A stretch of 64,000 nt of DNA from a virus (lineage: Duplodnaviria; Heunggongvirae; Uroviricota; Caudoviricetes). The notes under the pieces were generated by a model. It did not search any database. It had not been told where the DNA came from and saw nothing but the letters and a program-made list of their open reading frames with translations. Made by a program: the position numbers and the translations under genes. Location of the stretch: the IMG/VR virus record IMGVR_UViG_2639762884_000001; one strand, 5' to 3'. Positions within the stretch are counted from its first letter, which is position 1; each line of letters starts with the position of its first letter. Below, piece after piece: positions 1-64,000 of this stretch.

Positions 1-1359
1 TATACGATCCGCATAACAACGGCCACAACGACAAGTGTTTCCGGTGCTCTCACTAATGCGGAGTTTATCTATGTATTTAATGGCACAGATTATTCTCCAG
101 GATGGCGAAGAGTATATAACACGAAAAACAAACCAACAGCCTCTGATGTCGGTGCATTACCTCTTACCGGTGGTACATTATCTGGAGGTTTGACATCTTC
201 TGGCGAGATCATTTCAAAATATGCAAATGGTTTCCGCATTGCTTACGGTAGCTTTGGGTTCTTTATCCGTAATGATGGATCGAACACATATTTCATGCTA
301 ACAGCATCAGGAGACACATTAGGTTCATGGAACGGTTTGCGACCTATTACAATTAATAATACCAGCGGTGCTGTATCAATTGGTAATGGACTAAATGTGA
401 CTGGTGGCGTAAATGGTAGTTTGAACGGTAATGCTTCAACAGCTACGAAGTTGCAAACAGCGAGAAACATCAATGGTGTTAAGTTTGATGGCTCAGGCGA
501 TATCAACATTAATACATTGGTATCTCGTGGCCGAGTTACGGCGTTAAGCGGTTCTACTCAAGGTACTGCTGGCATTCAAATGTACGAGGCGTACAACAAT
601 AGCTACCCGACCACGTATGGCAACGTATTGCACATGAAAGGTGCGAGTGCTGCTGGTGAGGGCGAGTTGCTTATTGGCTGGAGTGGTACGAGCGGTGCAC
701 ATGCGCCGGTTTTCATTCGCTCCAGAAGAGATACCACTGATGCGGCATGGTCAGCGTGGGCGCAGGTATATACCGCTAAGGATTCAATCCCTGGTGTGAA
801 TACAACCGGTAATCAGAATACTACTGGTAATGCCGCAACAGCCACAAAATTGCAGACAGCAAGGAAAATTGCTGGTGTGGCGTTTGATGGCTCTGCCGAT
901 ATAACTTTGACTGCGGCTAACCTTAATGCTTACACGAAAACAGAGGTAACAAACCTTCTAAGTTCCTATGTGAAGAGCAGTGCTCTTCCAAGCATGACTG
1001 TGCGAACTTCCTCTGTTTCAGGTGGGGATATGGGCATGAGCTTGTCCGCATTCATTAGCCACCTAAAATCAAATGGGGCGTTTAGCAAAAGTTATTGGAT
1101 TGGCTTTGGCGATGCTATGGGATTCAATGCTGGCAGTATCAACAATATAACGGGATTTGGTGCTGTAGAATTAGCAGAATCTATAATCGAAGTTTTTAAT
1201 CTACCTAACGGTGATTATACAATTCGTTTAACAACGTCACATAAAGCTGACTACGGTGGAGTTACAAACGCAATCCTCGTTTATCACTACCGTAGTAATA
1301 GAAGTCCGTCAGGTCAATGGCTGAAATTTGCAGGTACTGTTGGGGCAACAAGTAACTGA
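1..1359 (+). CDS. tail fibre protein, C-terminal portion (5' end upstream of window)
   Basis: Frame 1 open from base 1 to stop at 1357-1359; table ORF 190..1359 is only the part after the first Met; Gly/Thr/Asn/Ser-rich; two copies of fibre motif GNAxTATKLQTARxIxGVxFDGSxDI. Confidence 0.7.
   Translation, partial: YTIRITTATTTSVSGALTNAEFIYVFNGTDYSPGWRRVYNTKNKPTASDVGALPLTGGTLSGGLTSSGEIISKYANGFRIAYGSFGFFIRNDGSNTYFMLTASGDTLGSWNGLRPITINNTSGAVSIGNGLNVTGGVNGSLNGNASTATKLQTARNINGVKFDGSGDININTLVSRGRVTALSGSTQGTAGIQMYEAYNNSYPTTYGNVLHMKGASAAGEGELLIGWSGTSGAHAPVFIRSRRDTTDAAWSAWAQVYTAKDSIPGVNTTGNQNTTGNAATATKLQTARKIAGVAFDGSADITLTAANLNAYTKTEVTNLLSSYVKSSALPSMTVRTSSVSGGDMGMSLSAFISHLKSNGAFSKSYWIGFGDAMGFNAGSINNITGFGAVELAESIIEVFNLPNGDYTIRLTTSHKADYGGVTNAILVYHYRSNRSPSGQWLKFAGTVGATSN
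427..903 (+). repeat. intragenic duplicated tail-fibre motif (copies ~427-504 and ~826-903)
   Basis: NGNASTATKLQTARNINGVKFDGSGDI and TGNAATATKLQTARKIAGVAFDGSADI in the same frame. Confidence 0.6.
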
Positions 1360-1377
1360 TTTAGACATTATTTATAT

Positions 1378-1409
1378 GGCTGTGAGGTTTAAAATGCGAT
1401 CTCACAGCC
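1378..1409 (+). other. stem-loop downstream of tail-fibre gene (weak terminator candidate)
   Basis: ggctgtgag ... ctcacagcc inverted repeat; no clear T-run. Confidence 0.3.
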
Positions 1410-1479
1410 GCAATCATAGGGATATATTAGTGAGTTACTAGATACGAATTTGAACAGCCGTTAAACGGCATATGCATAG

Positions 1480-1499
1480 ATAGGTAAGTATGTACCTAT
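1480..1499. promoter_or_regulatory. intergenic ATAGGTAAGT...ACCTAT palindromic motif (family member)
   Basis: ataggtaagtatgtacctat, about 60-70 nt upstream of the holin-like gene; same motif family recurs in at least 15 intergenic regions. Confidence 0.3.
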
Positions 1500-1561
1500 A
1501 ATTGAAAGGAGAAGTGTGATATAAATCCGCCATCCCGATTTGACTTTTCATGGAGGAAAAT

Positions 1562-1885
1562 ATGTCGAACGAGATGGCGGGCGTTACAACAGAGCAAGTT
1601 GAGCGTATTGCCGCGATCGTTGCTCGGGAGGTTGTTGGTAAATTAGGTAAAGAGCTACGTGAAGAAATTGGCCAGGAGGTCAATGATCAGCTGAAAACCT
1701 ACTTTGGTGATATGACCCCGGCGCAACATAGTATTCAACACTCCAATCTGGACAAACTCCTTAACCGGTTAGATTCCATCTCCAGTGGGTTCTTTGGCGG
1801 CATTGTTTCTAAAATAACGTCGTTCATTATTACTGCACTGCTTTTGGGGTTAGCCGCGTATGGCGTAAAAAATGGACTGCAATAA
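1562..1885 (+). CDS. holin-like small membrane protein (single C-terminal TM)
   Basis: ATG at 1562 preceded by GGAGG; hydrophobic C-terminal segment ITSFIITALLLGLAAYGV; first gene of a lysis-type cassette. Confidence 0.35.
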   Translation: MSNEMAGVTTEQVERIAAIVAREVVGKLGKELREEIGQEVNDQLKTYFGDMTPAQHSIQHSNLDKLLNRLDSISSGFFGGIVSKITSFIITALLLGLAAYGVKNGLQ

Positions 1886-1898
1886 CAGGAGATCAAGG

Positions 1899-2591
1899 AT
1901 GAAGACTCCGAGAGGCATTCGTAATAATAACCCCGGTAATCTTGATAAAGGATCACCGTGGCAAGGTCTGGTTGCGAATCCAGACGAACCGCGCTTTTGC
2001 ACGTTTAAAGACCCTGTTTGGGGGATTCGTGCGCTGGCGGTGACTCTAATTACCTACCACGACAAACGTCGCGCAAAAGACGGCTCAAGTATCGATACCA
2101 TTCGTGAAGTTATTGAACGTTGGGCACCGCCGAATGAAAACAATACTGACGCCTACATTAATGAGGTGTCTAAAGCCGTTGGTGTAACCGCAGACATGAT
2201 CATCGATCTGCATGATTACGACATCCTTCGACCTTTGGTTGAGGCAATCATTCGCCATGAGAATGGGCGAGGTCCGCTAAAAACGCTGAACACCTGGTAT
2301 GCGGCAGAAGTTATTGAGGAAGGTCTGCGTCGAGCTGGCGTCGTTAAGCCGGTGAAAACCGTGAAGGCTGTTCCTGTAACTAAAGAAACCGCAGGCGCAA
2401 CTGTCACAGCAGGTATTGGTCTGGCGCAGCTGGCCGATGTTATGCAGCAGGTTTCCGCTGCTATGGATAAAGCACAAGGTCATATCTCTAGCGGGGATAC
2501 AGTACGCATCATCTTCGGTATTGCCACTATTGTTGTGGCAGGATTCATTGCCTGGTCGCAGGTAAGAAAACACCAGAAAGGGATGGTCTAA
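1899..2591 (+). CDS. putative endolysin-like protein with C-terminal membrane anchor
   Basis: ATG 1899 with AGGAG RBS; N-terminal RNNNPGNL-containing domain; hydrophobic C-terminus IIFGIATIVVAGFIAW; sits between holin-like gene and spanins; enzymatic family not assigned. Confidence 0.35.
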   Translation: MKTPRGIRNNNPGNLDKGSPWQGLVANPDEPRFCTFKDPVWGIRALAVTLITYHDKRRAKDGSSIDTIREVIERWAPPNENNTDAYINEVSKAVGVTADMIIDLHDYDILRPLVEAIIRHENGRGPLKTLNTWYAAEVIEEGLRRAGVVKPVKTVKAVPVTKETAGATVTAGIGLAQLADVMQQVSAAMDKAQGHISSGDTVRIIFGIATIVVAGFIAWSQVRKHQKGMV

Positions 2592-2592
2592 T

Positions 2593-2844
2593 ATGCTAGG
2601 CAGCCTGATGACAAAGCTAAAAGTTGCTTTGATTACGCTGGCTGCCGTTCTTTTCGTTCTTGTCGGCGCTTACACGATGGGCGGAAATGCGGCGCGACGA
2701 GCAATGGAAGAGAAGGCAAAACAGGAAGACAGAAAACGACTTCAAAGCACAGTGGATGTCAAAAATGAAACGGTTAATGAAGTGCGGCAAAAAGATGCCT
2801 CTGGTGTTCATCGCGAGCTGTTTGATAAATGGGTGCGTGATTAA
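2593..2844 (+). CDS. i-spanin (Rz-like)
   Basis: N-terminal TM (LITLAAVLFVLVGAY) followed by charged, coiled-coil-like region; overlaps o-spanin gene. Confidence 0.55.
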   Translation: MLGSLMTKLKVALITLAAVLFVLVGAYTMGGNAARRAMEEKAKQEDRKRLQSTVDVKNETVNEVRQKDASGVHRELFDKWVRD

Positions 2845-2992
2845 GACGCAGGCTCCAGGCGTGCTATTCTGCGATGCTGCAAATCCTATCTATGTGAGTA
2901 GAGAGGATTTTATGACTGAGGAAACGGAGCGACAGTTGCTTATCCACAATACGATAGGTGAAAGGCTGTGTGAGTGGGGGCACCTGAACTGA
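2765..2992 (+). CDS. o-spanin lipoprotein (Rz1-like), overlapping i-spanin in another frame
   Basis: MKRLMKCGKKMPLVFIAS-C signal peptide with lipobox IASC; short Cys-containing mature part; start inside the i-spanin gene. Confidence 0.55.
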   Translation: MKRLMKCGKKMPLVFIASCLINGCVIKTQAPGVLFCDAANPIYVSREDFMTEETERQLLIHNTIGERLCEWGHLN

Positions 2993-3216
2993 GTCGATGA
3001 TTGATGAGTGGTCTCAGTTTACCTTTTATCCTAAAGATGGCATCTTCACTCATATACACGCCTGTTCACTCAAGCTCATGTTGAATCATTTAGTAATTTG
3101 ATGTAGATTTATTAGGCATCCACGTAAGTGGACACATACAGGCTACGCATCCTCGTAGCCTTCAACCCCGAGAGGGGTGCCGCAATGACACTTGTGTTAA
3201 CGGCTAAGGTGGACAC

Positions 3217-3600
3217 ATGCTGAACGAGAAACGTTCTATACAAACTATTCGCGATTGCACGAGTATTATCGAGACTCATGTGCTGAATCAGCACAAGCTT
3301 GAAGTACGTAAGCTCAATAATGACGCTATTGAACCGGAAGACTCACGCTTCATCGTTACCTTCAAAGACGATGTTGAGCGCGCTGGTGCAAGCGTGAAGC
3401 CATTAGCTGAAGCAATTTACCTGAATGGTCGTGTTCGTTTTGTAGTCAAGCCAGCTAAACAGTACCCTGAGCTGTCTCGTTTTATCGAGGCTTTTTCGGA
3501 GGTTATTGAACATTCTATTCGCCGCTTCTTACGCAATCATGGTAGCATTGTCAGCACGGTTAAGGCTGATGATTCTGCTACAAAATGGCTCCTACACTAG
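3217..3600 (+). CDS. hypothetical protein
   Basis: ORF with AAGGTGGA RBS before ATG 3217. Confidence 0.5.
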   Translation: MLNEKRSIQTIRDCTSIIETHVLNQHKLEVRKLNNDAIEPEDSRFIVTFKDDVERAGASVKPLAEAIYLNGRVRFVVKPAKQYPELSRFIEAFSEVIEHSIRRFLRNHGSIVSTVKADDSATKWLLH

Positions 3601-4337
3601 ATAGCGCATATTCAAAAGATCTAAGCGAGTTTCCTCATAAAGGGGAGACTCGTGTTGTTCGTTTTGGCTTTCTTATCAATGAAGCCTCCCTCTATAAAAT
3701 CTCAGAAATTGAAATCATTGAACCAGAAGATGACATTTGCCTGTATGTCTCTATGGAACGTGTAGGTGCGCGCGACCAAGGCGACCTGAGCGAATTCATC
3801 TTAGATCGAGCGGATGAAGATGCCCCTGAAGAAGAGATTATCAAAGAGGTGCTCCAGTCCGGGCTTCTGGACGAAAACAAAAATACGATCGCTGGTAGGA
3901 TAGCTCTGCGTGAATATAGTTTTGTTGAAGACGGTAATGAGATCGAATGTTACCAGGTAGCCGGTGTCGAAACTGTCAGAGAGCGTCGTCAGCGAGGATT
4001 GTGTCACCGTACCTATCTCTTTCTTCTTCATTGGTATGAGCATTTAGTCTGCGACGATACACAAACCATTCCTGGTGCTAAGATCTGGGCAGGGCCTCTC
4101 ATGCGAACCGGCGATGTGCGTATATACAATGCCAAAACAGAAACGTTCGAGGATGTGTTAGGTGAGTACGGGATGGGGAAAGAAACCGGATTTTTGCCGT
4201 GGAACAGAGGATTGTTGCTTGATGCAGAGTTAAGCTCTTGGCTCCCAAACAAAGTGCAAGTTAACGTTCAGAAATTTATCGTACTTATCATCTCCCGCAA
4301 AACAAGAACTCCAGTAGGTTTATACCTAAAAGATTAA
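3585..4337 (+). CDS. hypothetical protein
   Basis: 250-aa ORF overlapping the upstream gene by 16 nt; followed by a terminator. Confidence 0.5.
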   Translation: MAPTLDSAYSKDLSEFPHKGETRVVRFGFLINEASLYKISEIEIIEPEDDICLYVSMERVGARDQGDLSEFILDRADEDAPEEEIIKEVLQSGLLDENKNTIAGRIALREYSFVEDGNEIECYQVAGVETVRERRQRGLCHRTYLFLLHWYEHLVCDDTQTIPGAKIWAGPLMRTGDVRIYNAKTETFEDVLGEYGMGKETGFLPWNRGLLLDAELSSWLPNKVQVNVQKFIVLIISRKTRTPVGLYLKD

Positions 4338-4342
4338 AAATC

Positions 4343-4366
4343 AGGCGACTTTGGTCGCCTTTTTGT
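4343..4366 (+). terminator. rho-independent terminator
   Basis: aggcgactttggtcgcct stem followed by ttttt. Confidence 0.6.
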
Positions 4367-4462
4367 TAACAGCCATTGATTCTCGCCTAAAAATTCTAAG
4401 GCAGCACCTACCATTTAACCTTTACACCACAGCCGTAGGCATTTAGGCTATATCACATATAA

Positions 4463-4480
4463 GAAAACAAGTTGTTTCAG
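4463..4480. promoter_or_regulatory. GAAAACAA-N-TTGTTT palindromic motif upstream of parA
   Basis: gaaaacaagttgtttcag, 50 nt upstream of ATG 4513; one of six near-identical sites. Confidence 0.45.
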
Positions 4481-4512
4481 ACGATAATTATATACGCAAA
4501 GGGAACTCTCCA

Positions 4513-5181
4513 ATGACCAAGATCTTTGTGGTTGGCGGCACAAAGGGCGGGCCTGGCAAATCCACCGTTGCCCAGCAAATTGCCGTTTGCCTGAAAGTCA
4601 AAAAGAAGAAGAAGGTTTATATCACCGATATAGATATTCAGCGCACGACAACGAGCTGGTGTGAAGACCGTCGACAGAACGAAGATCTTGAGCTGATTCC
4701 TTTTGCATACGTTCAAGATGACATCATTAAGCACCTAAAATCGCTTCAGGGTAGAGCTGAGTATGTAGTGGTAGATGCTGGTGGCTTTGACTCCGAAATT
4801 CAGCGACAAGCGATGCTGATGGCCGACGTTATCATTATCCCGCTGCGTCCTAAGCGTCGTGATTTGAAATCTTTACGTGACATCGATCCTATTATCGACA
4901 ATGTTCGCAATGTAAACGACAAAGTGAAAGTCCGCGCGGTCATGAACCAATGCCCGGCTTTGCCATCACAAGTGTCTCGCATTCTAGCGGCTAAAGAGAT
5001 TGTCGAGACGTTTGGCATCGAGTCTGCGCCAGTCAATCTATATAACCGCAACGTCTATGATGATGCGGAAGAGTCTGGTCGTTCTATCTTTGAAATGACC
5101 GGTAGCGAGCGCGACAAAAAGGCGGAAGCCGAGTTTGAAGAATTTGTAGATTATCTGTTGAGTCTGGAGGAAGAAGAATAA
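4513..5181 (+). CDS. parA: ParA-family partition ATPase (small type)
   Basis: Deviant Walker A GGTKGGPGKST near N-terminus; 222 aa; followed by small partner gene. Confidence 0.8.
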   Translation: MTKIFVVGGTKGGPGKSTVAQQIAVCLKVKKKKKVYITDIDIQRTTTSWCEDRRQNEDLELIPFAYVQDDIIKHLKSLQGRAEYVVVDAGGFDSEIQRQAMLMADVIIIPLRPKRRDLKSLRDIDPIIDNVRNVNDKVKVRAVMNQCPALPSQVSRILAAKEIVETFGIESAPVNLYNRNVYDDAEESGRSIFEMTGSERDKKAEAEFEEFVDYLLSLEEEE

Positions 5182-5540
5182 TGTCCATGAAAATGGGTGA
5201 CCTAGCAAAGCGCAAAGAGCCTGATGCACCGGCTAAGAACACAACTCCTTTGCGCCAACCAATCAGACCACAGGGACGCCCGACTCGTGGCAAAGAGAAA
5301 ATTAAAAGCCGCACGATGTCACTGGAAGACGAATACTTCGAACTGCTGGAGATGATGAAGTTCATCCCTCGCTTCGAGAAGTTCACCCGTTCTGACGTGA
5401 TTCGCGCAGCCATTTTCCATCTGGCAGAGAAGTCACCGCAGGAAATCGAGGACATCGTGAAACTTAACGAGGCGATCACTGCTGCCGATGTCACGATGCG
5501 TACCGATGAAATTAAACGCGAGTTAATGAAGAAAGGTTGA
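5181..5540 (+). CDS. small partition partner protein (ParB/ParG-like centromere-binding protein)
   Basis: 119-aa basic protein translationally coupled to parA (ATG overlaps stop); position only, no motif proof. Confidence 0.45.
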   Translation: MSMKMGDLAKRKEPDAPAKNTTPLRQPIRPQGRPTRGKEKIKSRTMSLEDEYFELLEMMKFIPRFEKFTRSDVIRAAIFHLAEKSPQEIEDIVKLNEAITAADVTMRTDEIKRELMKKG

Positions 5541-5546
5541 TATAAA

Positions 5547-5581
5547 TCTCTAAGGCTGGTCTGCATTGGACAGCCTTAGAA
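5547..5581. terminator. bidirectional stem-loop between convergent genes (also candidate ParB site)
   Basis: ctctaaggctg ... cagccttagaa perfect inverted repeat. Confidence 0.45.
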
Positions 5582-5600
5582 ATATTTCGTTCTATGAAAG

Positions 5601-6659
5601 CTATTCGTAGTTAAGCTCACCGAACAGACTGAACATCAAGTCACCATCCAAAATTTCAAAGGGCAACTCGACATACTCATCCTTATGTCTCGGAATTGCG
5701 TTGCCGTCGTTAGGGGCATTCTTGGTATAACCTTTTACATGTTTACCGTTTTCTTTTGTATACGGCAGCACGACAATTCGACCGTGATTTTTTGAAATGA
5801 TAGTTCCTTCTTTCCAGAGCGTATTGCCTCTTGAGGTGGTTTCGCTTTCGCTAGCAACTTTAACACTCCAACCTACCTGATTTTTGTCCTCAAACCAGAA
5901 AACAAAGTTGCCAACAACCAGTACCTTTTGCCCATTCCTGAGAGCTTCATCCAGCATTCTTTTTACGCTGGCGAGTTGCAGTAACCGGTTAGCACGCGGC
6001 AGAAGCATTGAGCGAATAGTCGCTTTTGTTTTTCCCCAATGTGCAGCGCCTGATAAACCAAAACCTCTGGCTATGCGTTCTTGGTAGCAGATCTTCGCTG
6101 TCTTAGCTTTGTTGTTATATGAACATTCCCAAGTGTTAGGAGCAACGAGTTGAAGTGAAACTTGGAATTTGGGAAGAAAAACAAAATGTAAGTAAGGCAT
6201 CTCGCTTAGCACGTCAAAAAGGGGTTGACGCAAAGTTTCGTAATCTGGGTTAATTATTAACTCATTTAATGTCACTCGCGGATCGTTGGCGTGTGCCTTA
6301 ATTGCTTCGTTGAGCATTATATGCTCTTCATCCATGAGACGTGATTTGGCTTTGAGTGCTTTGTCAACTTTCAAACGCAATGACTTCTTTTGAAACATAG
6401 ATAGAGGAAGTTTTTCAATGTCAAAGCTCACGTTTTTATTCAGCTCTAATGCCGCTTTTCTTGCTTCAGGATAGTTATCGTAGTCGTCATCAAAAGCGTG
6501 GTTTGGCATACCACGATCAACATATCGCCGATACCAAGCAAGGGTTCCATCATTACGGAGTTTCAGACAGAACATCGACCATTTATTCCGTTCATATTTA
6601 GGCTGAGGCCAAAAAGCCAGTTCGGGAAGGCCATATCCTGGAAGTCTATTCATGCGCAT
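5601..6659 (-). CDS. hypothetical protein
   Basis: Long minus-strand ORF (table 5601..6674, GTG); ATG at 6659 preferred; no recognised motif. Confidence 0.5.
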   Translation of the reverse strand: MRMNRLPGYGLPELAFWPQPKYERNKWSMFCLKLRNDGTLAWYRRYVDRGMPNHAFDDDYDNYPEARKAALELNKNVSFDIEKLPLSMFQKKSLRLKVDKALKAKSRLMDEEHIMLNEAIKAHANDPRVTLNELIINPDYETLRQPLFDVLSEMPYLHFVFLPKFQVSLQLVAPNTWECSYNNKAKTAKICYQERIARGFGLSGAAHWGKTKATIRSMLLPRANRLLQLASVKRMLDEALRNGQKVLVVGNFVFWFEDKNQVGWSVKVASESETTSRGNTLWKEGTIISKNHGRIVVLPYTKENGKHVKGYTKNAPNDGNAIPRHKDEYVELPFEILDGDLMFSLFGELNYE

Positions 6660-6777
6660 GGTGACAATATCCACGAGGCTAAAACACTGATTCTAACATG
6701 ATCTCCCTTGATAAATCTGTCAATGACATAGCATCTGGGGTTGGAGTCAAATTATGTTGTTCTTGGTATCCATTAGG

Positions 6778-6948: not shown

Positions 6949-7689
6949 ATGAGCCAAATCTTTTTCGATACCATCGACAACGACCAGTACGACTTCATGA
7001 CAGAGTGGAATACCGCTGTTATGGACAAGTGGGTCGCTGAAAACATTGGTTTGTCGCGCTGTAAAGACGAGGCTGAACTCTTCGAGACGAAGTGGTTTGA
7101 TTACCGCGACATGCATCCTCTGATGGCCACCTGTCTATTTACGGAGGCATACAAACGTCAGTACTCAAATATCATGCTGACGCACGGTCGCGAACACTTT
7201 GAAACAGCTCCGTTCACCACCGGGTTAAAACGCCTGCCTTATCAGGAGTTGTCGACTGCCAATAAAACGTCGCTATGGAAAGCACGCCAGTTTGCTGACC
7301 GCTATTGCTGCTCATACGACTACTTTATCTCCACCGTTCTTTCCGCAGCTGCACGACGACTGTGGGACAAGCTGCCGCGTCCGCAGCATTTGTGGCAGCC
7401 AGAACTGATTGAGATATTTGAAGATAAATTAGCCAGACGCGCAACAACCCGTCTGGATGACTCTCTGGTTAGCTTTAAGCATATGGGAGACATGCAGTTC
7501 AACCCGATTCAGGAAAGCTATTTTGAGTGGATTCTGGAGCGTTTACGCGCCATCCCCCGCAGCAAGCGCATACGCGCAATTTTCTCCGCTATCTGGCTAA
7601 TGGAAATCGTTCCAGAGCGCCTTATTTCCGCCCACTTTCCAGAAGAACTGGAAGAAGCACGGCGGTTTATTGATCCCCTATCTAATTAA
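6949..7689 (+). CDS. hypothetical protein (upstream of helicase)
   Basis: ATG 6949 with AGGTGA RBS; table start 6940 is GTG. Confidence 0.5.
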   Translation: MSQIFFDTIDNDQYDFMTEWNTAVMDKWVAENIGLSRCKDEAELFETKWFDYRDMHPLMATCLFTEAYKRQYSNIMLTHGREHFETAPFTTGLKRLPYQELSTANKTSLWKARQFADRYCCSYDYFISTVLSAAARRLWDKLPRPQHLWQPELIEIFEDKLARRATTRLDDSLVSFKHMGDMQFNPIQESYFEWILERLRAIPRSKRIRAIFSAIWLMEIVPERLISAHFPEELEEARRFIDPLSN

Positions 7690-49525: not shown

Positions 49526-49526
49526 T

Positions 49527-53852: not shown

Positions 53853-53873
53853 TTTGCTCTGGCGTCTGTAATT

Positions 53874-54850: not shown

Positions 54851-54851
54851 T

Positions 54852-55462: not shown

Positions 55463-55590
55463 ATATTAAATCATGTATCTTATCGGCGTCAGGATGACAA
55501 TGTGTCGGTAAGACACAGTTCCAGGATGGAACGAGAAAGGCGGCTGGCGATCGCCAGCCGCAACTCTTTCTGACACTGGATGGAGTCCAC

Positions 55591-56085: not shown

Positions 56086-56098
56086 GGTGGTTGTATGA
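55847..56098 (+). CDS. membrane protein with Thr/Pro-rich linker
   Basis: TM segment MAYVLIIVSLATVAVPA then TTPPSTTITTTP. Confidence 0.4.
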   Translation: MENFQRKRLKPMAYVLIIVSLATVAVPAGQSLLMPDSSITTPPSTTITTTPVERPVTLDGMTVDAIPQVHPVTQDHVVTKVVV

Positions 56099-56283
56099 AC
56101 TGGCTTTCAAATCACTTTGGGAAAATTTGGCTGGCAATTCTGGCTCTCATGGCCGCCGGTTGGGTATCCAACATTATAAAACTCGTTTGCTCAGGTGATC
56201 TCCAGTTTCAGGCTGGCATGACCTTGGCTCGTGTAGTTGGGATTTTTATTTTTCCAGTCGGTTCGGTACTTGGTTATTTCTGA
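56095..56283 (+). CDS. small membrane protein
   Basis: 62 aa, two hydrophobic segments. Confidence 0.45.
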   Translation: MNWLSNHFGKIWLAILALMAAGWVSNIIKLVCSGDLQFQAGMTLARVVGIFIFPVGSVLGYF

Positions 56284-56337
56284 CGGTTGTTAGTGCATAT
56301 GCATTGACCGTCTTTGCGTAAGCAATTTATGTAACCA

Positions 56338-56355
56338 GAAAACAATTTGTTTTGA
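56338..56355. promoter_or_regulatory. GAAAACAA-N-TTGTTT palindromic motif
   Basis: gaaaacaatttgttttga, 39 nt upstream of ATG 56377. Confidence 0.45.
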
Positions 56356-56376
56356 CAAATAGCAAAAGGAAAACAC

Positions 56377-56802
56377 ATGTTAGGTTTCTTCAAAAAGAAA
56401 ACTCGTAAAGCTGTTATCGAAGTCAAAAAAATGGAGAACCGTGATGCGGTTGAAGCCACCGTGTGGGGCGGGTACATGATCTCCTATGCCAACGGTACAT
56501 GCGATGCAAAAGAAATTTCCATTCTTGAGAAAACAATTGCAGCTCTGCCTGCATTTTCTCCTTTTGCTGGTGAGATTGCCCAGATGAGCGCCAATATCCG
56601 CGCTCAATACGAAGCCTCACCGCGCCGTGCTAATGCCCAGGCTTTACGTGAGCTGGCGGATGTGGCCGGGACTGATGATGCAGTAGATGTACTGTGTCTG
56701 TGCCTTGATATTGCCGACCAGGACGGCATTGATGAACCAGAAGAGCAGGCGCTGAAAAAGATCGCCCAGGCGCTTCAGTTGTCACTGGATGCTTATCTCT
56801 AA
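56377..56802 (+). CDS. hypothetical protein (possibly TerB-like)
   Basis: 141 aa; acidic C-terminal helical region with loose resemblance to TerB-type domains. Confidence 0.3.
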   Translation: MLGFFKKKTRKAVIEVKKMENRDAVEATVWGGYMISYANGTCDAKEISILEKTIAALPAFSPFAGEIAQMSANIRAQYEASPRRANAQALRELADVAGTDDAVDVLCLCLDIADQDGIDEPEEQALKKIAQALQLSLDAYL

Positions 56803-56960
56803 TGCTTGAGAGATTCCGGCTTGTGACCGTCATTGCTCTTCTGGTGATGGCGGTGTTGGTGGATTTTACGGGAAAGATGATGTCTGTCATTTCTGATGGC
56901 GTCCTCATTGGTCTGGCGATCTACTTCGCTTATCCGCTAGTCCGTAAAGCAACGTGTTAA
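56802..56960 (+). CDS. small membrane protein (52 aa, not in ORF table)
   Basis: ATG overlaps upstream stop; two hydrophobic segments; followed by terminator. Confidence 0.4.
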   Translation: MLERFRLVTVIALLVMAVLVDFTGKMMSVISDGVLIGLAIYFAYPLVRKATC

Positions 56961-56962
56961 TG

Positions 56963-56992
56963 ACAAGGGCCAAATGGCCCTTGTGTTTCGTT
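56963..56992 (+). terminator. rho-independent terminator
   Basis: acaagggcc aaa tggcccttgt followed by gtttcgtt. Confidence 0.6.
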
Positions 56993-57066
56993 GACCGAAA
57001 TAGAGAGTTTGCACCTTTACGTTTAGCTTGCTCCCCTTTTATGCCACATCACAATAAAGCCAATAA

Positions 57067-57084
57067 GAAAACAACTTGTTTAAG
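57067..57084. promoter_or_regulatory. GAAAACAA-N-TTGTTT palindromic motif
   Basis: gaaaacaacttgtttaag, 33 nt upstream of ATG 57100. Confidence 0.45.
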
Positions 57085-57099
57085 CATTAGGAAAAACAC

Positions 57100-57669
57100 A
57101 TGTGCAAGAAATGCAAAGCGATAGCTGATGAACAAAACGCCTTATTCGAAGAAATGGATGCTAATGAACTGGTCAAAATGTTAGCCATTCTTCGAGGAAT
57201 AGAAGACGTTTCCATATTTGAGAGAGTGGTTACAGCACTTAATTTTGAGTCCACCTTTGAAGAGCCAACTCAGGTTGTAGCTTTAGCACATCATTTCGGT
57301 GTTCATTATCTTGCTGAAAAAGAGCGCGCTGATAAGTTGCAGGCGACTTTGGATATGGTGAGCGAGACTCAACGAACTGATGACACTAACAAGAGTGAGG
57401 CGATTATTGCCAGCAAAGATCGTGAAATTGCTGGGCTTAAATCCTCTCTAACGATGTTGATGTCTGCGTTCAATCTTATGTCTTCTCAGGCGGGTTATAA
57501 AATGCCATCACTAAACAGCGATGATCCGATGGCCGTTCGTCAGCTTTTGGGAGCAATGGCCGACCAACTCGACGACACAAAGAGTCGCCTTGAAGACATG
57601 ATGCGTGAGTTAAGCCATCGACATAACCTCGCAACACAACCACACAAAGTCTTTCAAAGCTCTAATTGA
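57100..57669 (+). CDS. hypothetical protein
   Basis: 189-aa ORF with conserved AAAAACACATG leader. Confidence 0.5.
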   Translation: MCKKCKAIADEQNALFEEMDANELVKMLAILRGIEDVSIFERVVTALNFESTFEEPTQVVALAHHFGVHYLAEKERADKLQATLDMVSETQRTDDTNKSEAIIASKDREIAGLKSSLTMLMSAFNLMSSQAGYKMPSLNSDDPMAVRQLLGAMADQLDDTKSRLEDMMRELSHRHNLATQPHKVFQSSN

Positions 57670-57723
57670 TCTGATATGGCCGCATGATCGGCCATATTGT
57701 GTTGATAAAAACAAGGGTGAAAA

Positions 57724-58005
57724 ATGGCATACGGTACAGGGATTTACAACAATAAAGGAATTAACGTTACTGGCTTCCTTACACCTATTTTTTTTCTTGA
57801 TCGATTTACGGCGTCATCAGGCTCTAAGACGTACTCTAATCCGCCACCGGGTAAATCACTACATGCCGTGTGGTCATTAATGCCTCTTAACAACGACAAC
57901 TACATCAATTTACCTGTTCCAAATGTTACTATTAATGGAAATACGGTTAGTTGGTCAAATTTATATACGGGGCTTGGTTCTTACATATACACATACTGGG
58001 GATAA
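57724..58005 (+). CDS. hypothetical protein (AT-rich accessory gene 1 of 2)
   Basis: 93 aa, Asn/Tyr/Gly-rich; AT-rich composition. Confidence 0.45.
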   Translation: MAYGTGIYNNKGINVTGFLTPIFFLDRFTASSGSKTYSNPPPGKSLHAVWSLMPLNNDNYINLPVPNVTINGNTVSWSNLYTGLGSYIYTYWG

Positions 58006-58007
58006 TT

Positions 58008-58622
58008 ATGTTCGGGATGTCAATTACTCAATCAGATGGAAGTTTGTGGATGAGTCCAGAATTTACTCCGCAAAATCTGATTAATAAAGGGACAATGTCT
58101 ACATCTAAAGGTTCTGTTTTTCAAACATCAATCCCATCAAACAAATCATGTTTTTTTTTCATAAAAAGCAGTAATAAGGCGAACATGATGTTTATTCATG
58201 AGCATAGTAACGGATACAATGCTCTCAGATTGCATCAGGTAAATGGTAGCCCCGGAACAATAACAGTTTATGCTTTTTCTGATATGGTGTTACCACATTC
58301 TGGCTATGGCATTGCCATGTATAACAGCGCAGGCGCAATGGTGTATCACGGTGAGATGATGCCCCTTGATGCGAAACTTATCACTATTTCTGACCCTCAA
58401 TTTACAATAGATATGGGGTATCCATGTGCGGTAATGCCTGCTATGGTTGGAGTATATAACTATAGACGAACCGATTACGACAGACCTGTCTATGTAACAA
58501 TGACAGGTGCAACTGGAAACCAAGTATATAACGGTCAATGGTATTCCGGTAATGTCACATGGGATATTAAGAAGATTTATACAAACAAAATTCTGGTGAT
58601 AAATACCTCCAAGTATGATTAG
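58008..58622 (+). CDS. hypothetical protein (AT-rich accessory gene 2 of 2)
   Basis: ATG 58008 three nt after upstream stop; Asn/Tyr/Met-rich, predicted beta-rich. Confidence 0.45.
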   Translation: MFGMSITQSDGSLWMSPEFTPQNLINKGTMSTSKGSVFQTSIPSNKSCFFFIKSSNKANMMFIHEHSNGYNALRLHQVNGSPGTITVYAFSDMVLPHSGYGIAMYNSAGAMVYHGEMMPLDAKLITISDPQFTIDMGYPCAVMPAMVGVYNYRRTDYDRPVYVTMTGATGNQVYNGQWYSGNVTWDIKKIYTNKILVINTSKYD

Positions 58623-58685
58623 CCAATGCCTTTATTTGAAGGATTGCCTGTTTATTTCTATTTAGTACCTTTTCATTTTTGAAAT

Positions 58686-58725
58686 AATTGCACCATTAAA
58701 CAAATCACTTCTTAATGGTGCAATT
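58686..58725. promoter_or_regulatory. perfect 14-bp inverted repeat abutting the methyltransferase start codon
   Basis: aattgcaccattaa - 12 nt - ttaatggtgcaatt, ending at the ATG. Confidence 0.5.
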
Positions 58726-60411
58726 ATGAATACAGCCCTTTCCATCATCGACGATGCCAACTCAAACACTGCTATCGACTATCGGCAGGAAATGAACGTC
58801 ATCCACGAAATTGTGGCCGAGTGCGAGAAAGAGATCGCCTTCATGTATCAGGTTCACGACTTCGTTTATGGCGACGAACGCCACAACATGATTAATCGCC
58901 TGCTGAGACTAAACCATCGACCAGATGAAGATCGCTCGCGTTTAAATCGAGGTTGGTTGGATAAAGTCGATCTGGAATGGGTGAAACAGAATATTTGGGC
59001 CGAGTACTGGAGGAAGGTCACGGACATGACTAACGTTTTGCTGATCATGCCAGCTTCCCGTCGAGATGAGTGGCGCGAGCAGTTTATAGAGGGCAAACAG
59101 GAAGTCATCAAAACTGACAGAACCGGCTACCAGATGAAGGTTAAAGAGTTCGTTGGTGTACCGGAGTTCAAAGCAGAAACGGTCATACCCACGATGCTTA
59201 ATTTGCTGAATGACAGGCACAAATATCTCTCTGAGCGCGTGTATGGCTTGTTTAAGGCGCTGAGTCCTGCGCACAAGACAAATAAGACAAACGGTTTCAG
59301 CGAGCGTCTGATAATCGCTGACTGCATTTCTGATTTCTGGCGGGACAGCGTTAGCGTGAACTATCGCAAAGAGGACTACATCGACGATCTGCGTGTCTTG
59401 CTTCATTTCTTCGCGCACAAAGAATTTATTACCATCAACCGCACTGCTGAGGTGCTATCAGCTGCGTATCGGGCAAACGACTGCCAGACCGGTGACTGGA
59501 TGAACGTCGATGGAAATCTGATGCGCGTGAAGATGTTCAAGAACGGCAACGTTCACTTTGAAATACATCCTGACGTGGCCTGGAAGTTGAATGAGGTGCT
59601 GGCTTACAGTATGCCTGCTGCAATTCCCGCGCCATGCCGAACTGCGCCAAAAACACGGGCACCAAAGCAGTTCGGGTTAATCCAGAAGACGATCTCCGTG
59701 CCGGTTCGCACTGCGCTTCGTGACGGGCGATTTAGCAAAGACAAAGGCGTATGGTACTTCTCTGATTCAGCTCTCCAGAAGTCGCAGGTGGAAGAGCTTG
59801 AGCGCACACTGAGCTTCATTGGCGGCGTGCAGGAGAAAAAGCACTGGCAGTTCCCGTATGAGATCGGCCATACGCTAAATACGATTGTGGCTACCGGTTT
59901 AATACCGGATACAAAATCACACCAGTTCTACCCTACCCCACGCTTGATTGCTGAGTACGTTGCCAGAGCCACTGAATTGAAGCCTGGTGAGAAGTTGTTG
60001 GAGCCTCAAGCCGGACGTGGGGATCTTCTGGCCTATATTAACGCCGATCTGGAAGATGTTACCTGCATAGAAATCGCACCTCTCTTCGCTGATATCCTGC
60101 GTGGAAAAGGGTATACGAACACGATTTGCTGCGACTTCATAAAGTGGTCTGAGGACAACGCAGGTTATCAGTTCGACAAAATCGTTATGAACCCGCCGTA
60201 CTCGCTTGGTCGTCATAGAGAGCACACGCTGGCTGCGCTGGGGCATCTGAAAGTCGGCGGGCGTCTTGTAGCAGTATTGCCGGGCACTGCGCCAATACTG
60301 GACTGGATGACGATGGATAATTACGTTTATGCCAGAGGGAAGTCGTTTACCAACGAGTTTGAAGACACAGGGATCACAGTCAGCGTATACGTTTTCAAAC
60401 GCGTTAAATGA
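58726..60411 (+). CDS. DNA N6-adenine methyltransferase (gamma-class) fused to a large N-terminal domain of unknown function
   Basis: C-terminal ~180 aa: FYPTP, SAM motif LEPQAGRGDLL, catalytic MNPPYS; N-terminal ~380 aa without recognised motif; no adjacent restriction enzyme gene. Confidence 0.65.
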   Translation: MNTALSIIDDANSNTAIDYRQEMNVIHEIVAECEKEIAFMYQVHDFVYGDERHNMINRLLRLNHRPDEDRSRLNRGWLDKVDLEWVKQNIWAEYWRKVTDMTNVLLIMPASRRDEWREQFIEGKQEVIKTDRTGYQMKVKEFVGVPEFKAETVIPTMLNLLNDRHKYLSERVYGLFKALSPAHKTNKTNGFSERLIIADCISDFWRDSVSVNYRKEDYIDDLRVLLHFFAHKEFITINRTAEVLSAAYRANDCQTGDWMNVDGNLMRVKMFKNGNVHFEIHPDVAWKLNEVLAYSMPAAIPAPCRTAPKTRAPKQFGLIQKTISVPVRTALRDGRFSKDKGVWYFSDSALQKSQVEELERTLSFIGGVQEKKHWQFPYEIGHTLNTIVATGLIPDTKSHQFYPTPRLIAEYVARATELKPGEKLLEPQAGRGDLLAYINADLEDVTCIEIAPLFADILRGKGYTNTICCDFIKWSEDNAGYQFDKIVMNPPYSLGRHREHTLAALGHLKVGGRLVAVLPGTAPILDWMTMDNYVYARGKSFTNEFEDTGITVSVYVFKRVK

Positions 60412-61695: not shown

Positions 61696-62151
61696 ATGAG
61701 TAACAAAATCGAAAATCCCGTAGTTCTCATTCACAAGCGCGAGAACCACGACTCCTATGCGGTGGCGATCACCAATGGGAGTCACGATTTTTACGATGGC
61801 CTGCTAATGGCCTCAGTGTCGCCTGATGAGGCAGACAACTCTTTTGCCGTCTTCGCTATGGTTGGTTACTACATGGCTGCCGAAATTGAGAAGTTGCGGG
61901 CGCAGAGAGACGCATTAGCGGCGGAGAATGCAGCCCTGAAAGAATCTGAGCGAGCATTCGATGCGATGTGTGCCGAGGAACACGGAGATAATTGGGTTAG
62001 CGAATTAACGGAGACTCCAGCAACCGATGCTTTTCTGGCTGAAGTACGTGCGCAGGGCGTGGAGATGTTTGCTGAGTGCGCATACACACTTGAACATCAT
62101 GATCACGCAGTAGCTTTTGCCGCTGAGCTTCGTACAGGAGCTAAACAGTGA
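61696..62151 (+). CDS. hypothetical protein
   Basis: 151-aa ORF with AGAGAAAAACACATG leader. Confidence 0.5.
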   Translation: MSNKIENPVVLIHKRENHDSYAVAITNGSHDFYDGLLMASVSPDEADNSFAVFAMVGYYMAAEIEKLRAQRDALAAENAALKESERAFDAMCAEEHGDNWVSELTETPATDAFLAEVRAQGVEMFAECAYTLEHHDHAVAFAAELRTGAKQ

Positions 62152-62714
62152 ATGAGATTTACTACCTGACGTTACGTGAACGTTATTCACCAAAACCAGC
62201 GCCTAAATGCTCTGTTTGTGGCGAGGAAATGTCAATACAGCGCATATCTGGAGCACATGTTGTTTATGCCTGTTCCGGTGAGGGTGATGACGGATATTTT
62301 AAGATAGGGCGTACTTTTGCAGACGAACATTATGAAAAATCACGCGTAACAGTAGTTGATGATAGTGATCCCGATGTGATTGCACTGCTGGACGAACTGG
62401 ATAAAAGACAGCAACACATCCGACGTCTTGAGCAGGAGAACGTAGAGATGGCCCTAACGCTTGAGAAACTGCGTGTTGAGCTGGAGACCGTTAAACAGCG
62501 GGAAAAGGATCTGTTTATGGAAAATGTTCGACTTAAGTCAGGTATAGCAGGTCTGATACACCTCGGTATTCGATATGCGGATGTCGAAGTCATGAAAATA
62601 GCTGGAGATGCCCAGCTTTCTACTCCCTGTACTGACAGCATCATAAACAGTATTGCATCAGGCGTTTTCACCAAAGAGGGTCAGCATGATGAGAACAGTA
62701 GAAGTTCGCGCTGA
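62148..62714 (+). CDS. hypothetical protein with zinc-ribbon-like Cys pairs and coiled coil
   Basis: GTG start overlapping upstream stop; CSVCGEE...YACSGEG; RRLEQENVEMALTLEKLRVELETVKQREKD. Confidence 0.45.
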   Translation: MNEIYYLTLRERYSPKPAPKCSVCGEEMSIQRISGAHVVYACSGEGDDGYFKIGRTFADEHYEKSRVTVVDDSDPDVIALLDELDKRQQHIRRLEQENVEMALTLEKLRVELETVKQREKDLFMENVRLKSGIAGLIHLGIRYADVEVMKIAGDAQLSTPCTDSIINSIASGVFTKEGQHDENSRSSR

Positions 62715-62874
62715 AGATGTAACCCCAGGTGATGTGGTCATAACATCTAAAGGCAAACGATGTGCGGTTAAATCTTTCTGGATGAACGGTGAAAAAGTGA
62801 CTCTGTTCGGTACGGATGGTTCCGAAACTGATTATGACTACGACGAATTGCTTGTTGTTGAGAGAGCCACCTAA
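62686..62874 (+). CDS. small hypothetical protein
   Basis: ATG 62686 with AAAGAGGG RBS; table start 62653. Confidence 0.4.
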   Translation: MMRTVEVRAEDVTPGDVVITSKGKRCAVKSFWMNGEKVTLFGTDGSETDYDYDELLVVERAT

Positions 62875-63410
62875 TGACCACCTTTACCAAAGAACAGTTA
62901 ATCTCCCATGCACGCGAAAGCGTTAGTTATCTGGAAGACTTGAAAGGACGTGTTAGTAAAGAAGGAGCGGACTGCAAAGTTGTTCATGAGATGGTTGAAC
63001 GAGATCTAAAACTGGCTCGAATTGCACTGACCTCACTGGAGGCAGAGCCAGTGGCGTGGCTGGTAACACTCACAAAAAACGATCAGGAATCAGTCTCTAT
63101 TATTTACCGTGACTGTGCAGAGAAAGATACATGGGTTCGGATACATGAGTCACTCGGTTCTGTCGCACATGTTGCCCCGCTTTACATGGCGCAGCCAGAA
63201 CCGTCGAAGGAGGAGAAAGGACGTTCAGTCATCCAGGGTAAAGCCGATAATTCACCATTGCCGCGCTACCAGGTTATCGAATTAACAATGCTGGTTAAAC
63301 AATTGGTCAGCCAACTGAAAAAAGCAAAACCTGATTGCAAATTACCGGATAGGGCGATGGATTATCTTTTGCGGAACGGACTGCTAAGTGTGGAGGATGC
63401 CTTACGATGA
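62874..63410 (+). CDS. hypothetical protein
   Basis: 178-aa ORF, ATG overlaps upstream stop. Confidence 0.5.
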   Translation: MTTFTKEQLISHARESVSYLEDLKGRVSKEGADCKVVHEMVERDLKLARIALTSLEAEPVAWLVTLTKNDQESVSIIYRDCAEKDTWVRIHESLGSVAHVAPLYMAQPEPSKEEKGRSVIQGKADNSPLPRYQVIELTMLVKQLVSQLKKAKPDCKLPDRAMDYLLRNGLLSVEDALR

Positions 63411-63970
63411 TTGAAATGACAAAAGAAGAACTAACACAGGCAACAAAGGATTACGGAAAAAAGCACATCGCACATCGTATGGCGAATGTGTTACTGGCCT
63501 TGTCTGAACAAAAGCCATCTGCGTTTGTAATGAAAGATGATTTGGCCGATCCGGCAATTGTTTCGACTCCGGCATATTTAGATATTGAGGATGCGGAACA
63601 AAAAACGATTGGGGATATTGTCGCGCTTTATGCCGATCCCTTTCCTGTCATCGGCGACACTACTGCTCTTGTGGACGATATTTTAAACATTCTCGCGCTT
63701 CTTGAGGCTGGCGATTGGTCAGAACATTGCACTAAAACGGAGTTAGGCGGTCGGCTTGAAAGAGAGATTACACAACTTATTGGTGATGCCCAAAATGATT
63801 TGTCACCTGAGCATCTCCCCTGCGATGTAGTCCTTGTGCCAGGGATGAGGATACACGAAGGCGTCAGAACGAAAACATTATTAACCGCATTACAGAGAAG
63901 AGCCGAACTAAGCTCGCGGATAAAGTTGATGGATTTGCCCCTATATTTCCAGACATCTGTTATCACTTAA
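63407..63970 (+). CDS. hypothetical protein
   Basis: 187-aa ORF, ATG overlaps upstream stop. Confidence 0.5.
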   Translation: MIEMTKEELTQATKDYGKKHIAHRMANVLLALSEQKPSAFVMKDDLADPAIVSTPAYLDIEDAEQKTIGDIVALYADPFPVIGDTTALVDDILNILALLEAGDWSEHCTKTELGGRLEREITQLIGDAQNDLSPEHLPCDVVLVPGMRIHEGVRTKTLLTALQRRAELSSRIKLMDLPLYFQTSVIT

Positions 63971-64000
63971 CCCATTACAAGCCCGCTGCCGCAGATATTC

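Follow-up and report, generated by a model that had tools for sequence, protein, structure and literature searches.

What kind of element carries tail-fibre and lysis genes next to a plasmid replication initiator and a partition ATPase? The question is raised by a 64,000-nucleotide (nt) stretch of viral DNA (IMG/VR record IMGVR_UViG_2639762884_000001), referred to below, at its full length, as the window. An original prediction, made from the letters of the sequence, had read it as part of a phage-plasmid, as it appeared to combine tail-fibre and lysis genes, a replication, recombination and nucleotide-metabolism set, a tyrosine recombinase and a helix-turn-helix (HTH) regulator; profile matches and the annotation of a near-identical plasmid confirm that all of these are present. 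Our comparisons agree with that reading: the window very likely represents ~59% of a circular, extrachromosomal plasmid-prophage of ~108-110 kb that belongs to the SSU5 supergroup, and within it to the E. coli lineage that includes Cyrano/pLF82, which is probably the 'pSLy3' type. The element is a further copy of a known, well-populated and experimentally anchored family, and its classification is already known; SSU5-like E. coli phage-plasmids are catalogued in hundreds and typed by standard tools, and one 97%-identical member has been studied experimentally. The only lead that may be new is the arrangement of a recombinase gene, a core site and a LexA box, to which we return after the replicon itself.

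Identity and topology of the replicon

The window was compared by megablast, in segments of 25 kb, with phage, plasmid and complete E. coli genome collections. Positions 1-63931 correspond to positions 22441-86371 of 'plasmid 4' of E. coli DG341-1 (108,475 bp; referred to as the sibling) at 99.98% identity, with 12 mismatches and 0 indels when the two were compared directly. Over test segments of 25 kb and 20 kb, the 108,475-bp plasmid found in several chicken E. coli isolates and a 115.7-kb pig plasmid match at 100%. More than 100 non-mobilizable E. coli plasmids of ~110 kb, one of which is recorded as circular, cover 80-98% of each 25-kb segment at 96-99% identity, and close relatives range in size from 103 to 120 kb. 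The nearest phage records are Escherichia phages Cyrano, CMS-2020a and PhiR41_1 (96-98% nucleotide identity), followed by Salmonella phage SSU5 (78-80% across 46-69% of the window). The resemblance to SSU5-type elements that the original prediction suggested is therefore borne out, and Cyrano (plasmid pLF82 of E. coli LF82; OV696614) shares the gene order of the window and matches 73-94% of it at 97-98% nucleotide identity.

The sibling plasmid is a closed circle. The break in the DG341-1 record falls within the portal gene, that in the equally long DG351-2 record within a helicase gene; the two independent assemblies are rotations of one another, and each holds the other's end-to-start junction contiguously. 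Because the rotated assemblies span each other's junctions, and because neither record contains a terminal repeat, the molecule must be circular. The phage half is complete as well, as a complete siphovirus morphogenesis module (terminase, portal, major capsid, tape measure, tail-tip and tail-fibre proteins) lies in the part of the sibling outside the window, and all morphogenesis, lysis and replication genes of the sibling are intact open reading frames (ORFs). Among 5,426 complete E. coli genomes, 210 carry the segment of the window that contains rep and its iterons (36150-38250), at 360 places in total; every one of these is plasmid-borne, and 0 chromosomal copies were found. Phage core functions, plasmid replication and partition, and an extrachromosomal state (the latter via the sibling) are thus all found, and these are features by which a phage-plasmid is operationally defined (Pfeifer et al. 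2021); a further one, infectious virions and lysogeny as a plasmid, has been documented for the relative Cyrano (copy number, induction and particles; PMC9928086).

Phage-plasmid groups, their hosts and their size ranges have been defined previously (PMC7969092, PMC12977533, PMC11652158), and the E. coli lineage (pSLy3) is classed apart from the SSU5 group (PMC12977533, PMC11652158). For pSLy3, tyPPing asks for a size of 85-134 kb, a range into which the 108,475-bp sibling falls, and for at least 47 of 95 type-specific signature protein profiles (PMC12977533); as a proxy for these profiles we used the nucleotide identities to Cyrano and SSU5 given above, which extend over most of the window. 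SSU5-type elements are mitomycin-inducible and have been found exclusively extrachromosomal (PMC9600943). For Cyrano, a copy number of 5.5 per cell has been reported, together with a 39-fold increase in encapsidated DNA upon ciprofloxacin treatment and siphovirus particles that match it (PMC9928086).

Gene content supports the same placement. Besides gene order, the window has in common with Cyrano the lysis cassette, parA and its partner gene (99% amino acid identity), the recombination site, the LexA box and the recombinase-HTH module; Cyrano differs in its Rep allele, in its iterons, in the cargo of its accessory islands, in the length of its RecA, in having 3 tRNAs against 4, and in having no IS2. 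With SSU5, a siphovirus with a Rep3/IncFIB-like replicon, the window shares the backbone order tail fibre, lysis, par, helicase/primase, ligase, CobT/AAA, DnaE, SSB/exonuclease/RecA, rep, SbcCD, Nrd, ThyX and DHFR. SSU5 differs in having no recombinase-HTH-70-aa module, a Rep that is only 49% identical, and one tRNA gene.

Apart from the 12 mismatches, the window departs from the sibling at its right-hand end:

63932-64000: end of an IS2 copy, interrupting the gene that starts at 63407

IS2 copies with exactly these terminal 69 nt occur at 10,793 places in E. coli genomes. As the 99.98%-identical sibling plasmids do not carry this IS2, the true source of the window is a distinct copy that bears the insertion sequence; the three collections searched contain no record that matches the window at 100% over its full length.

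Replication and partition of the plasmid

The genes and sites with which the plasmid would be replicated and segregated lie in two parts of the window:

36277-36807 (+): downstream iteron array, candidate copy-control (incA-like) locus, 12 copies of CCGCTGACAGCATA
36808-38022 (-): Rep3-family replication initiator with a Rep3 WH1 domain (PF01051, 5.2e-9, 37.1 bits against a cutoff of 22.4)
37917-38145 (-): candidate plasmid origin, with iterons, a GATC cluster and DnaA-box-like 9-mers
4513-5181 (+): ParA, a small Walker-type partition ATPase of 222 aa (Pfam AAA_31/MipZ/CbiA/ParA; phrog_164, 2e-51)
5181-5540 (+): ParA partner, candidate centromere-binding adaptor of 119 aa, from its position and its co-conservation with parA in Cyrano, SSU5 and Klebsiella pJN2-26

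The expected RepA with iterons was found as a Rep3 winged-helix initiator with tandem iterons beside its gene, the make-up of an iteron-regulated Rep3 replicon. The iteron CCGCTGACAGCATA, counted with at most 2 mismatches, is present in 16 copies, all in a single orientation and all clustered within 36277-38023, and no copies occur elsewhere in the 64-kb window. Its upstream set (37917-38023) comprises 4 copies and 1 degenerate copy, and is followed by six GATC sites within 38065-38123 (59 bp), the densest such cluster in the window, and by two DnaA-box-like 9-mers at 38129 and 38137. A sequence search of the PDB with Rep gave no match. The annotated Rep ATG (38022) sits within an iteron, the first ~48 residues of the annotated ORF fall outside the alignments with the Reps of SSU5 (49%) and Cyrano (50%), and 37902 is the exact starting position of many rotated assemblies. 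The true start is likely the in-frame ATG at 37902, which would give a protein of 364 aa, and the first 40 annotated codons are probably non-coding.

The Rep allele differs from those of both SSU5 and pLF82. It is not of the IncFIB(pLF82-PhagePlasmid) type, as the two Reps are only 50% identical and the Cyrano iterons are of a CTCTATAGTGGATA type that is unrelated to CCGCTGACAGCATA; it may be of the H89 type. The replicon module has been swapped on a near-identical backbone, and ~90 of 210 E. coli plasmids that share the flanking sequence do so without the window's rep. A conserved backbone with a swapped replicon and five fixed insertion hot spots (described below) bears on incompatibility and on the uptake of toxin-antitoxin, defence and resistance cargo.

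The layout of this region resembles oriR/incC-repA-incA of P1, in which an iteron-binding initiator is likewise accompanied by origin iterons with DnaA boxes and a GATC cluster, and by a second set of iterons beyond rep. From this likeness we infer that the origin fires at the upstream set and that copy number is controlled by the downstream set. During lysogeny the Rep3-type initiator would fire an origin located just upstream of its own gene, using the 4-5 iterons, the GATC cluster and the two DnaA boxes, and the 12 downstream iterons would probably limit copy number via Rep titration or handcuffing, by analogy with P1 oriR/incA.

The predicted ParAB pair stood in part. ParA is recognized by Pfam, NCBIfam and phrog_164, although its score against NCBIfam ParA_partition (2.3e-33, 115.5 bits) does not reach the curated cutoff of 180. 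A ParA/MinD-type P-loop domain spans the whole 222-aa protein, which in this respect is like the ParA of type Ib (ParA/ParG-like) systems, a small Walker protein that has no N-terminal DNA-binding domain. ParB, on the other hand, was not recognizable: the gene after parA has no ParB N-terminal (ParB/Srx) domain in Pfam at E values up to 5, and the ParB/Srx-domain genes that the sibling does contain are located beside terminase, outside the window. The 119-aa product of the gene after parA has no match in Pfam (even at E up to 5), in NCBIfam, among PDB sequences (as a single sequence or as a profile) or in Foldseek, and none to the RHH/ParG family. Its AlphaFold2 (AF2) model, of low confidence (pLDDT 64), combines a basic, disordered tail at the N-terminus with a helical domain at the C-terminus, and its family is confined to contigs of ~110 kb. 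The reading that we prefer, from position and sequence pattern, is that of a ParG-like centromere-binding adaptor, with which the small ParA would segregate plasmid copies. The label 'RelE/ParE toxin', given to the 99%-identical protein by the annotators of Cyrano, found no support in the Pfam, NCBIfam, PDB, AF2 or Foldseek searches. P1 also relies on an active partition ATPase, but it does so with a large ParA and a ParB, in contrast to the small ParA and 119-aa partner encoded here.

A search for a centromere detected no repeat arrays around the par locus, only a 9-mer, CTAAGGCWG, that occurs three times. Its matches, at 4396, 5550 and 5571, are the sole ones in 64 kb and lie on both sides of the operon of parA and its partner; three matches were reached in 1 of 100 shuffles. 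The 9-mer is a candidate operator or centromere half-site, and the downstream pair may simply be a terminator hairpin.

The recombinase, its candidate core site and the neighbouring regulator

The tyrosine recombinase is encoded between an inverted-repeat site and a convergent HTH gene:

18965-18997: candidate recombination core site, a 13-7-13 inverted repeat, AATGATTCCATAC-ctactat-GTATGGAATCATT
19022-19068 (+): putative SOS-regulated promoter, with TTGATC at 19022-19027, a 17-nt spacer and TAATAT at 19045-19050
19050-19068 (+): LexA box TACTGTTTACTTATACAGT, overlapping the TAATAT of the putative recombinase promoter
19096-20199 (+): tyrosine recombinase of 367 aa with core-binding and catalytic domains (PF00589)
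20194-20580 (-): HTH protein of 128 aa, putative lysogeny repressor (phrog_8 'transcriptional regulator', 1.3e-11; HTH_19 under the Pfam cutoff)
20581-21044 (+): divergent control region of ~250 bp, with a promoter-like site at 20654-20627 (-) for the repressor gene, and the 70-aa gene beyond it
20832-21044 (+): the 70-aa gene, without recognized function, present in 67 of 69 loci

Conservation of this locus was assessed in the window and 69 IMG/VR relatives (70 loci), whose recombinases are 56-100% identical. The core site is a perfect inverted repeat located 98 nt upstream of the recombinase ATG, and 69 of the 70 loci have identical arms; the one exception (L079, 12-5-12) retains their inner 11-12 nt. 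Six variants of the 7-bp spacer occur, and positions just outside the arms co-vary in a manner that preserves the symmetry. A related pair is found on a 507-kb megaplasmid of Pantoea vagans, where a gene for a 48%-identical recombinase has an 11-7-11 site directly upstream with both arm changes mirrored, no phage genes nearby and no LexA box. The pair of recombinase and site therefore seems to be a general plasmid module, and SOS control seems to be peculiar to phage-plasmids of this lineage. The SSU5-type core site was found on only 7 contigs (12 to 169 kb) among 185,579 species genomes; several of these contigs (~108-113 kb) are probably phage-plasmids, and no obvious chromosomal attB for the site was recognized.

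In the recombinase, residues R185, K211, R284, H307 and Y316 are invariant or nearly so. Its AF2 model (pLDDT 84) has an all-helical N-terminal half with no beta-rich arm-binding domain, and PF13356 is absent from the family, although its distant relatives carry it. In Foldseek the model comes closest to lambda Int 75-356, Tn1549 Int and Xer (E around 1e-6), and sequence searches of the PDB with the recombinase and with the HTH protein gave no match. Two familiar assignments were considered and set aside. Membership of the Cre family is not supported, as the structural match to Cre is weak (E 0.03 or worse), and the protein does not resemble a lambda/P4-type integrase with an arm-binding domain and a complex attP, given the missing PF13356 and the all-helical N-terminal half of the model. 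The gene does adjoin two inverted arms around a short spacer, which is the organization of a Cre/loxP-type site, and the recombinase would thus act like Cre/loxP in multimer resolution without being of the Cre family. In P1, too, a tyrosine recombinase is paired with a simple inverted-repeat site with 13-bp arms. P1 differs in the spacer of that site (8 bp, versus 7 here), in its recombinase, Cre, which is the weak structural match just described, and in its virion, as P1 is a myovirus and the element described here a siphovirus.

The promoter that precedes the recombinase gene contains a CTGT-N8-ACAG operator, as is characteristic of the LexA regulon, and LexA is predicted to bind there. This motif lies at -42 to -46 from the recombinase ATG in 66 of the 70 loci, where the -10 element is invariant and spacer and flanks vary, and the box is also found upstream of the recombinase in Cyrano and in pJN2-26. 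We accept the box because of this conservation across loci, not because of its count. The only other strong LexA box in the replicon precedes humD in the sibling, as in P1, and serves as an internal control; the box at the recombinase promoter is a feature of the window that distinguishes it from P1. A limited literature search, which is no proof of novelty, found no paper tying SSU5-type elements to LexA control or to a role for the recombinase.

The HTH and recombinase genes converge, their 3' ends overlapping by 6 nt, and a convergent overlap is kept in 69 of 69 loci. Across these loci the HTH protein is 46-100% identical, far more divergent than the recombinase, as is the case for immunity repressors. 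It has no S24 peptidase domain, and is not a self-cleaving repressor of the CI/LexA kind. Its homologue in Cyrano, CYRAN_45, is expressed in lysogens (PMC9928086). A palindrome, GGTAAGtgCTTACC, considered as a possible repressor operator, adjoins the promoter-like site of the repressor gene and does not track HTH type cleanly across loci. In SSU5, the interval between the tRNA gene and CobT (18526-18762) does not contain the module of recombinase, HTH and 70-aa genes; the type phage is thus without the putative repressor region found in the E. coli and Klebsiella elements.

Taken as a whole, the element could operate as follows. In lysogeny the 128-aa HTH protein would hold the lytic genes off, and the recombinase, acting on the adjacent 13-7-13 site, would resolve multimers as Cre/loxP does for P1. 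Upon DNA damage LexA would leave the box that overlaps the recombinase promoter, and transcription might then run through the recombinase gene into the convergent repressor gene, a speculative route from the SOS response to induction; we propose it with low confidence, on account of the convergent overlap, the divergence of the repressor and the missing S24 domain. For lytic growth the element would use a replisome of its own, together with T4-like recombination genes and genes for dNTP synthesis; the virion genes are outside the window, and the cycle would end with the holin, endolysin and spanin cassette at the window start. N15 offers a partial precedent: according to Mardanov & Ravin 2007, as cited in PMC11652158, it has an antirepressor that is under SOS control. 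In both elements the plasmid-prophage repressor is not known to be RecA-cleavable, and induction is coupled to SOS via a LexA-regulated promoter of the element, a link that is predicted here. The difference is that the LexA-controlled gene here encodes a tyrosine recombinase convergent with the repressor gene, and no antirepressor was recognized. In its fullest form, this account holds that the recombinase is an SOS-induced, Cre-like resolvase and not an integrase, that its promoter links damage to induction through collision or antisense transcription at the repressor, that the spacer variants are compatibility types, and that the site, at the edge of a variable island, could admit cargo. We regard this combination as possible but doubtful. 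If confirmed, the SOS-controlled module of recombinase and core site would provide a testable handle on multimer resolution and damage sensing, points left unexplained in the reviews consulted.

Several observations weigh against the interpretation given so far. Matches to the LexA pattern number one in the window against 0.87 expected, which is chance level, and the hexamers of the recombinase promoter (8/12) are below the scan threshold, leaving it uncalled by the promoter scan. Neither the family of the ParA partner nor a centromere was recognized in our searches. That the recombinase resolves multimers, that the downstream iterons control copy number and that induction takes the proposed route are steps that we infer. 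The evidence on topology comes from a sibling with 12 mismatches and without the IS2. Finally, the window carries the IS2 insertion at 63932 and an rnhA annotated as frameshifted, and mitomycin C treatment yielded no packaged DNA of a pSLy3-type element in E. coli strain 166F4 (PMC9600943), so that the copy described here may be phage-defective.

The last three facts speak for a phage-derived plasmid that no longer makes infectious virions, a domesticated or defective element kept by Rep and Par only. We consider this unlikely, since the ORFs for morphogenesis, lysis and replication are all intact in the sibling, the 97%-identical Cyrano is inducible and forms particles, and the IS2 hits a small gene in a variable region that has no recognized core function; the identical copies in several chicken and pig isolates are also compatible with infectious spread. 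Much less probable still is a chromosomally integrated prophage for which the tyrosine recombinase is the true integrase. The fold and profile of the recombinase do place it in the lambda/P4 integrase clade, and databases label it 'integrase', but it is without an arm-binding domain and adjoins a symmetric 13-7-13 site instead of an attP with arms, no chromosomal copy of that site was recognized among the species genomes searched, the sibling is a closed 108-kb circle annotated as a plasmid, no rep module is chromosomal in the complete E. coli genomes, and the type has been reported as extrachromosomal only (PMC9600943). A strictly lytic phage with non-functional Rep and Par remnants, a notion to which the isolation of SSU5 as a plaque-forming phage without the recombinase-repressor module lends some colour, is just as improbable, given that the sequence is on record as a plasmid of cultured isolates, that Rep and ParA, like the 16 iterons and the DnaA boxes, are intact and in the arrangement of a working origin, that a repressor-type HTH gene is conserved, and that Cyrano is kept at 5.5 copies per cell. 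Integration and a lytic remnant were the two outcomes that the original prediction had named as fatal to it, and both are contradicted; the source replicon, judged by its sibling, is circular and extrachromosomal, and the plasmid-prophage remains our reading.

Phage backbone, accessory islands and apparently captured DNA

The remaining features are listed below in their order along the window. Backbone genes are named from the RefSeq annotation of the near-identical sibling and from our own profile scans.

1-1359 (+): tail-fibre gene, 3' (C-terminal) part, cut at the window start (phrog_6722 tail fiber, E 3.5e-239; RefSeq 'phage tail protein')
1562-2992 (+): lysis cassette of holin candidate, endolysin, i-spanin and o-spanin
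1562-1885 (+): holin candidate, with a single C-terminal transmembrane (TM) segment
1899-2591 (+): endolysin (phrog_873, 1.9e-88), with a C-terminal TM segment (membrane anchor)
2593-2844 (+): i-spanin, Rz (phrog_1026)
2756-2992 (+): o-spanin, an Rz1-like lipoprotein with lipobox FIASC (phrog_1275, 1.1e-25)
2973-4405: accessory island 1, two genes without recognized function at 3217-3600 and 3585-4337; no Pfam or PADLOC matches
5543-6771: accessory island 2, a 357-aa gene without recognized function at 5601-6674 (-)
6949-7689 (+): conserved gene of unrecognized function
7733-9073 (+): DnaB-like helicase (RefSeq of sibling)
9221-10336 (+): primase (RefSeq of sibling)
10312-12184: accessory island 3, a Sel1/TPR-repeat protein at 10328-11473 (-) (Pfam Sel1, 1.1e-53) and a 137-aa unassigned protein
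13557-14879 (+): ATP-dependent DNA ligase (RefSeq), conserved in every relative compared
16466-17023 (+): tRNA cluster Asn(GTT), Tyr(GTA), Thr(TGT), Ser(TGA) (ARAGORN)
16542-18947: accessory island
21143-24582 (+): CobT-like VWA protein and AAA_5 (MoxR/CobS-like) ATPase, a conserved backbone pair (Pfam CobT, CobT_C (1.3e-82), AAA_5)
24763-28281 (+): DNA polymerase III alpha (DnaE) homologue (RefSeq of sibling)
28293-29521: accessory island 5, a DUF4365 protein at 28457-29422 (-) (Pfam 2.3e-16; PADLOC REase-domain match 2.1e-10)
29566-33490 (+): block of recombination and replication genes (phrog_231, phrog_1192; RefSeq; Cyrano annotation)
29566-29997 (+): UvsY-like mediator, in this block
30115-31143 (+): gp32-like single-stranded DNA-binding protein (SSB), in this block
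31204-32148 (+): 5'-3' exonuclease, in this block
32417-33490 (+): RecA, 357 aa, in this block
39123-40208 (+): SbcD-like phosphoesterase (Pfam Metallophos; RefSeq)
40438-42354 (+): SbcC/Rad50-like ATPase (Pfam AAA_23, SMC_N, SbcC_Walker_B; RefSeq)
43097-43666 (+): RuvC-family resolvase (RefSeq), separated by one further gene from the SbcC-like gene and closing the block 39123-43666
43740-52105 (+): nucleotide-metabolism block of NrdA, NrdB, pyrophosphohydrolase, thymidylate synthase, HAD hydrolase, DHFR, P-loop kinase-like ATPase and 3'-5' exonuclease (RefSeq; Pfam AAA_28)
49937-50413 (+): DHFR, annotated dfrA51 (NCBIfam DfrA51, 334.6 bits against a cutoff of 322)
53259-60411 (+): block from a methyltransferase to a DUF4942 protein (RefSeq; PADLOC MTase_II and mad2 matches; phrog_425)
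53259-53852 (+): N6-adenine methyltransferase (RefSeq)
54785-55445 (+): rnhA (RNase HI), annotated as frameshifted in the sibling
within 53259-60411 (+): TerB-family protein and C39-peptidase-like membrane protein (RefSeq)
58726-60411 (+): DUF4942 protein (Pfam DUF4942), its C-terminal part methyltransferase-like

The tail-fibre gene is complete in the sibling plasmid, where it measures 4,038 nt. In the lysis cassette, the o-spanin gene overlaps the Rz gene in a different frame and was missed by the RefSeq annotation of the sibling; the homologues of the cassette in Cyrano and SSU5 are annotated as holin, endolysin, Rz and Rz1. The gene at 6949-7689, the helicase and the primase are conserved in Cyrano, SSU5 and pJN2-26, and glutaredoxin is also found among the nucleotide-metabolism genes, in the sibling's RefSeq annotation and the scans. 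In Cyrano the RecA ORF (33066-35405) encodes 779 aa, as compared to 357 aa in the window, and a LAGLIDADG endonuclease is annotated in or beside dnaE of other relatives; dnaE and recA of the window are uninterrupted. This pattern suggests that some lineages have acquired mobile inteins or homing endonucleases.

A core phage DHFR gene, located inside the nucleotide-metabolism operon, is flagged as trimethoprim resistance, and with the backbone DHFR now labelled dfrA51, these common elements are flagged as resistance carriers. The published minimum inhibitory concentrations were reportedly obtained by over-expressing the SSU5 allele.

Each of the five accessory islands is bounded by breakpoints that recur identically in Cyrano, SSU5 and pJN2-26, but the cargo differs. 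Cyrano carries a KacT toxin-antitoxin pair at island 1 and HicAB at island 5, where the window has unassigned genes and the DUF4365 protein, respectively. A PADLOC scan of the accessory genes gave domain-level matches only.

The P1-like phages P7 and D6 have a tRNA region that is ~93% identical to the cluster of the window; an Rfam scan recovers three of the four tRNAs in this cluster, and no other RNA family in the window. The number of tRNA genes differs among relatives (4 in the window, 3 in Cyrano and 1 in SSU5), and together these observations suggest tRNA exchange between phage-plasmid families. Outside the window, at 1384-5138 of the sibling, a perfect LexA box lies just 5' of humD (UmuD-like), and next come the host genes apbC and metG, which the phage-plasmid appears to have captured from a chromosome.

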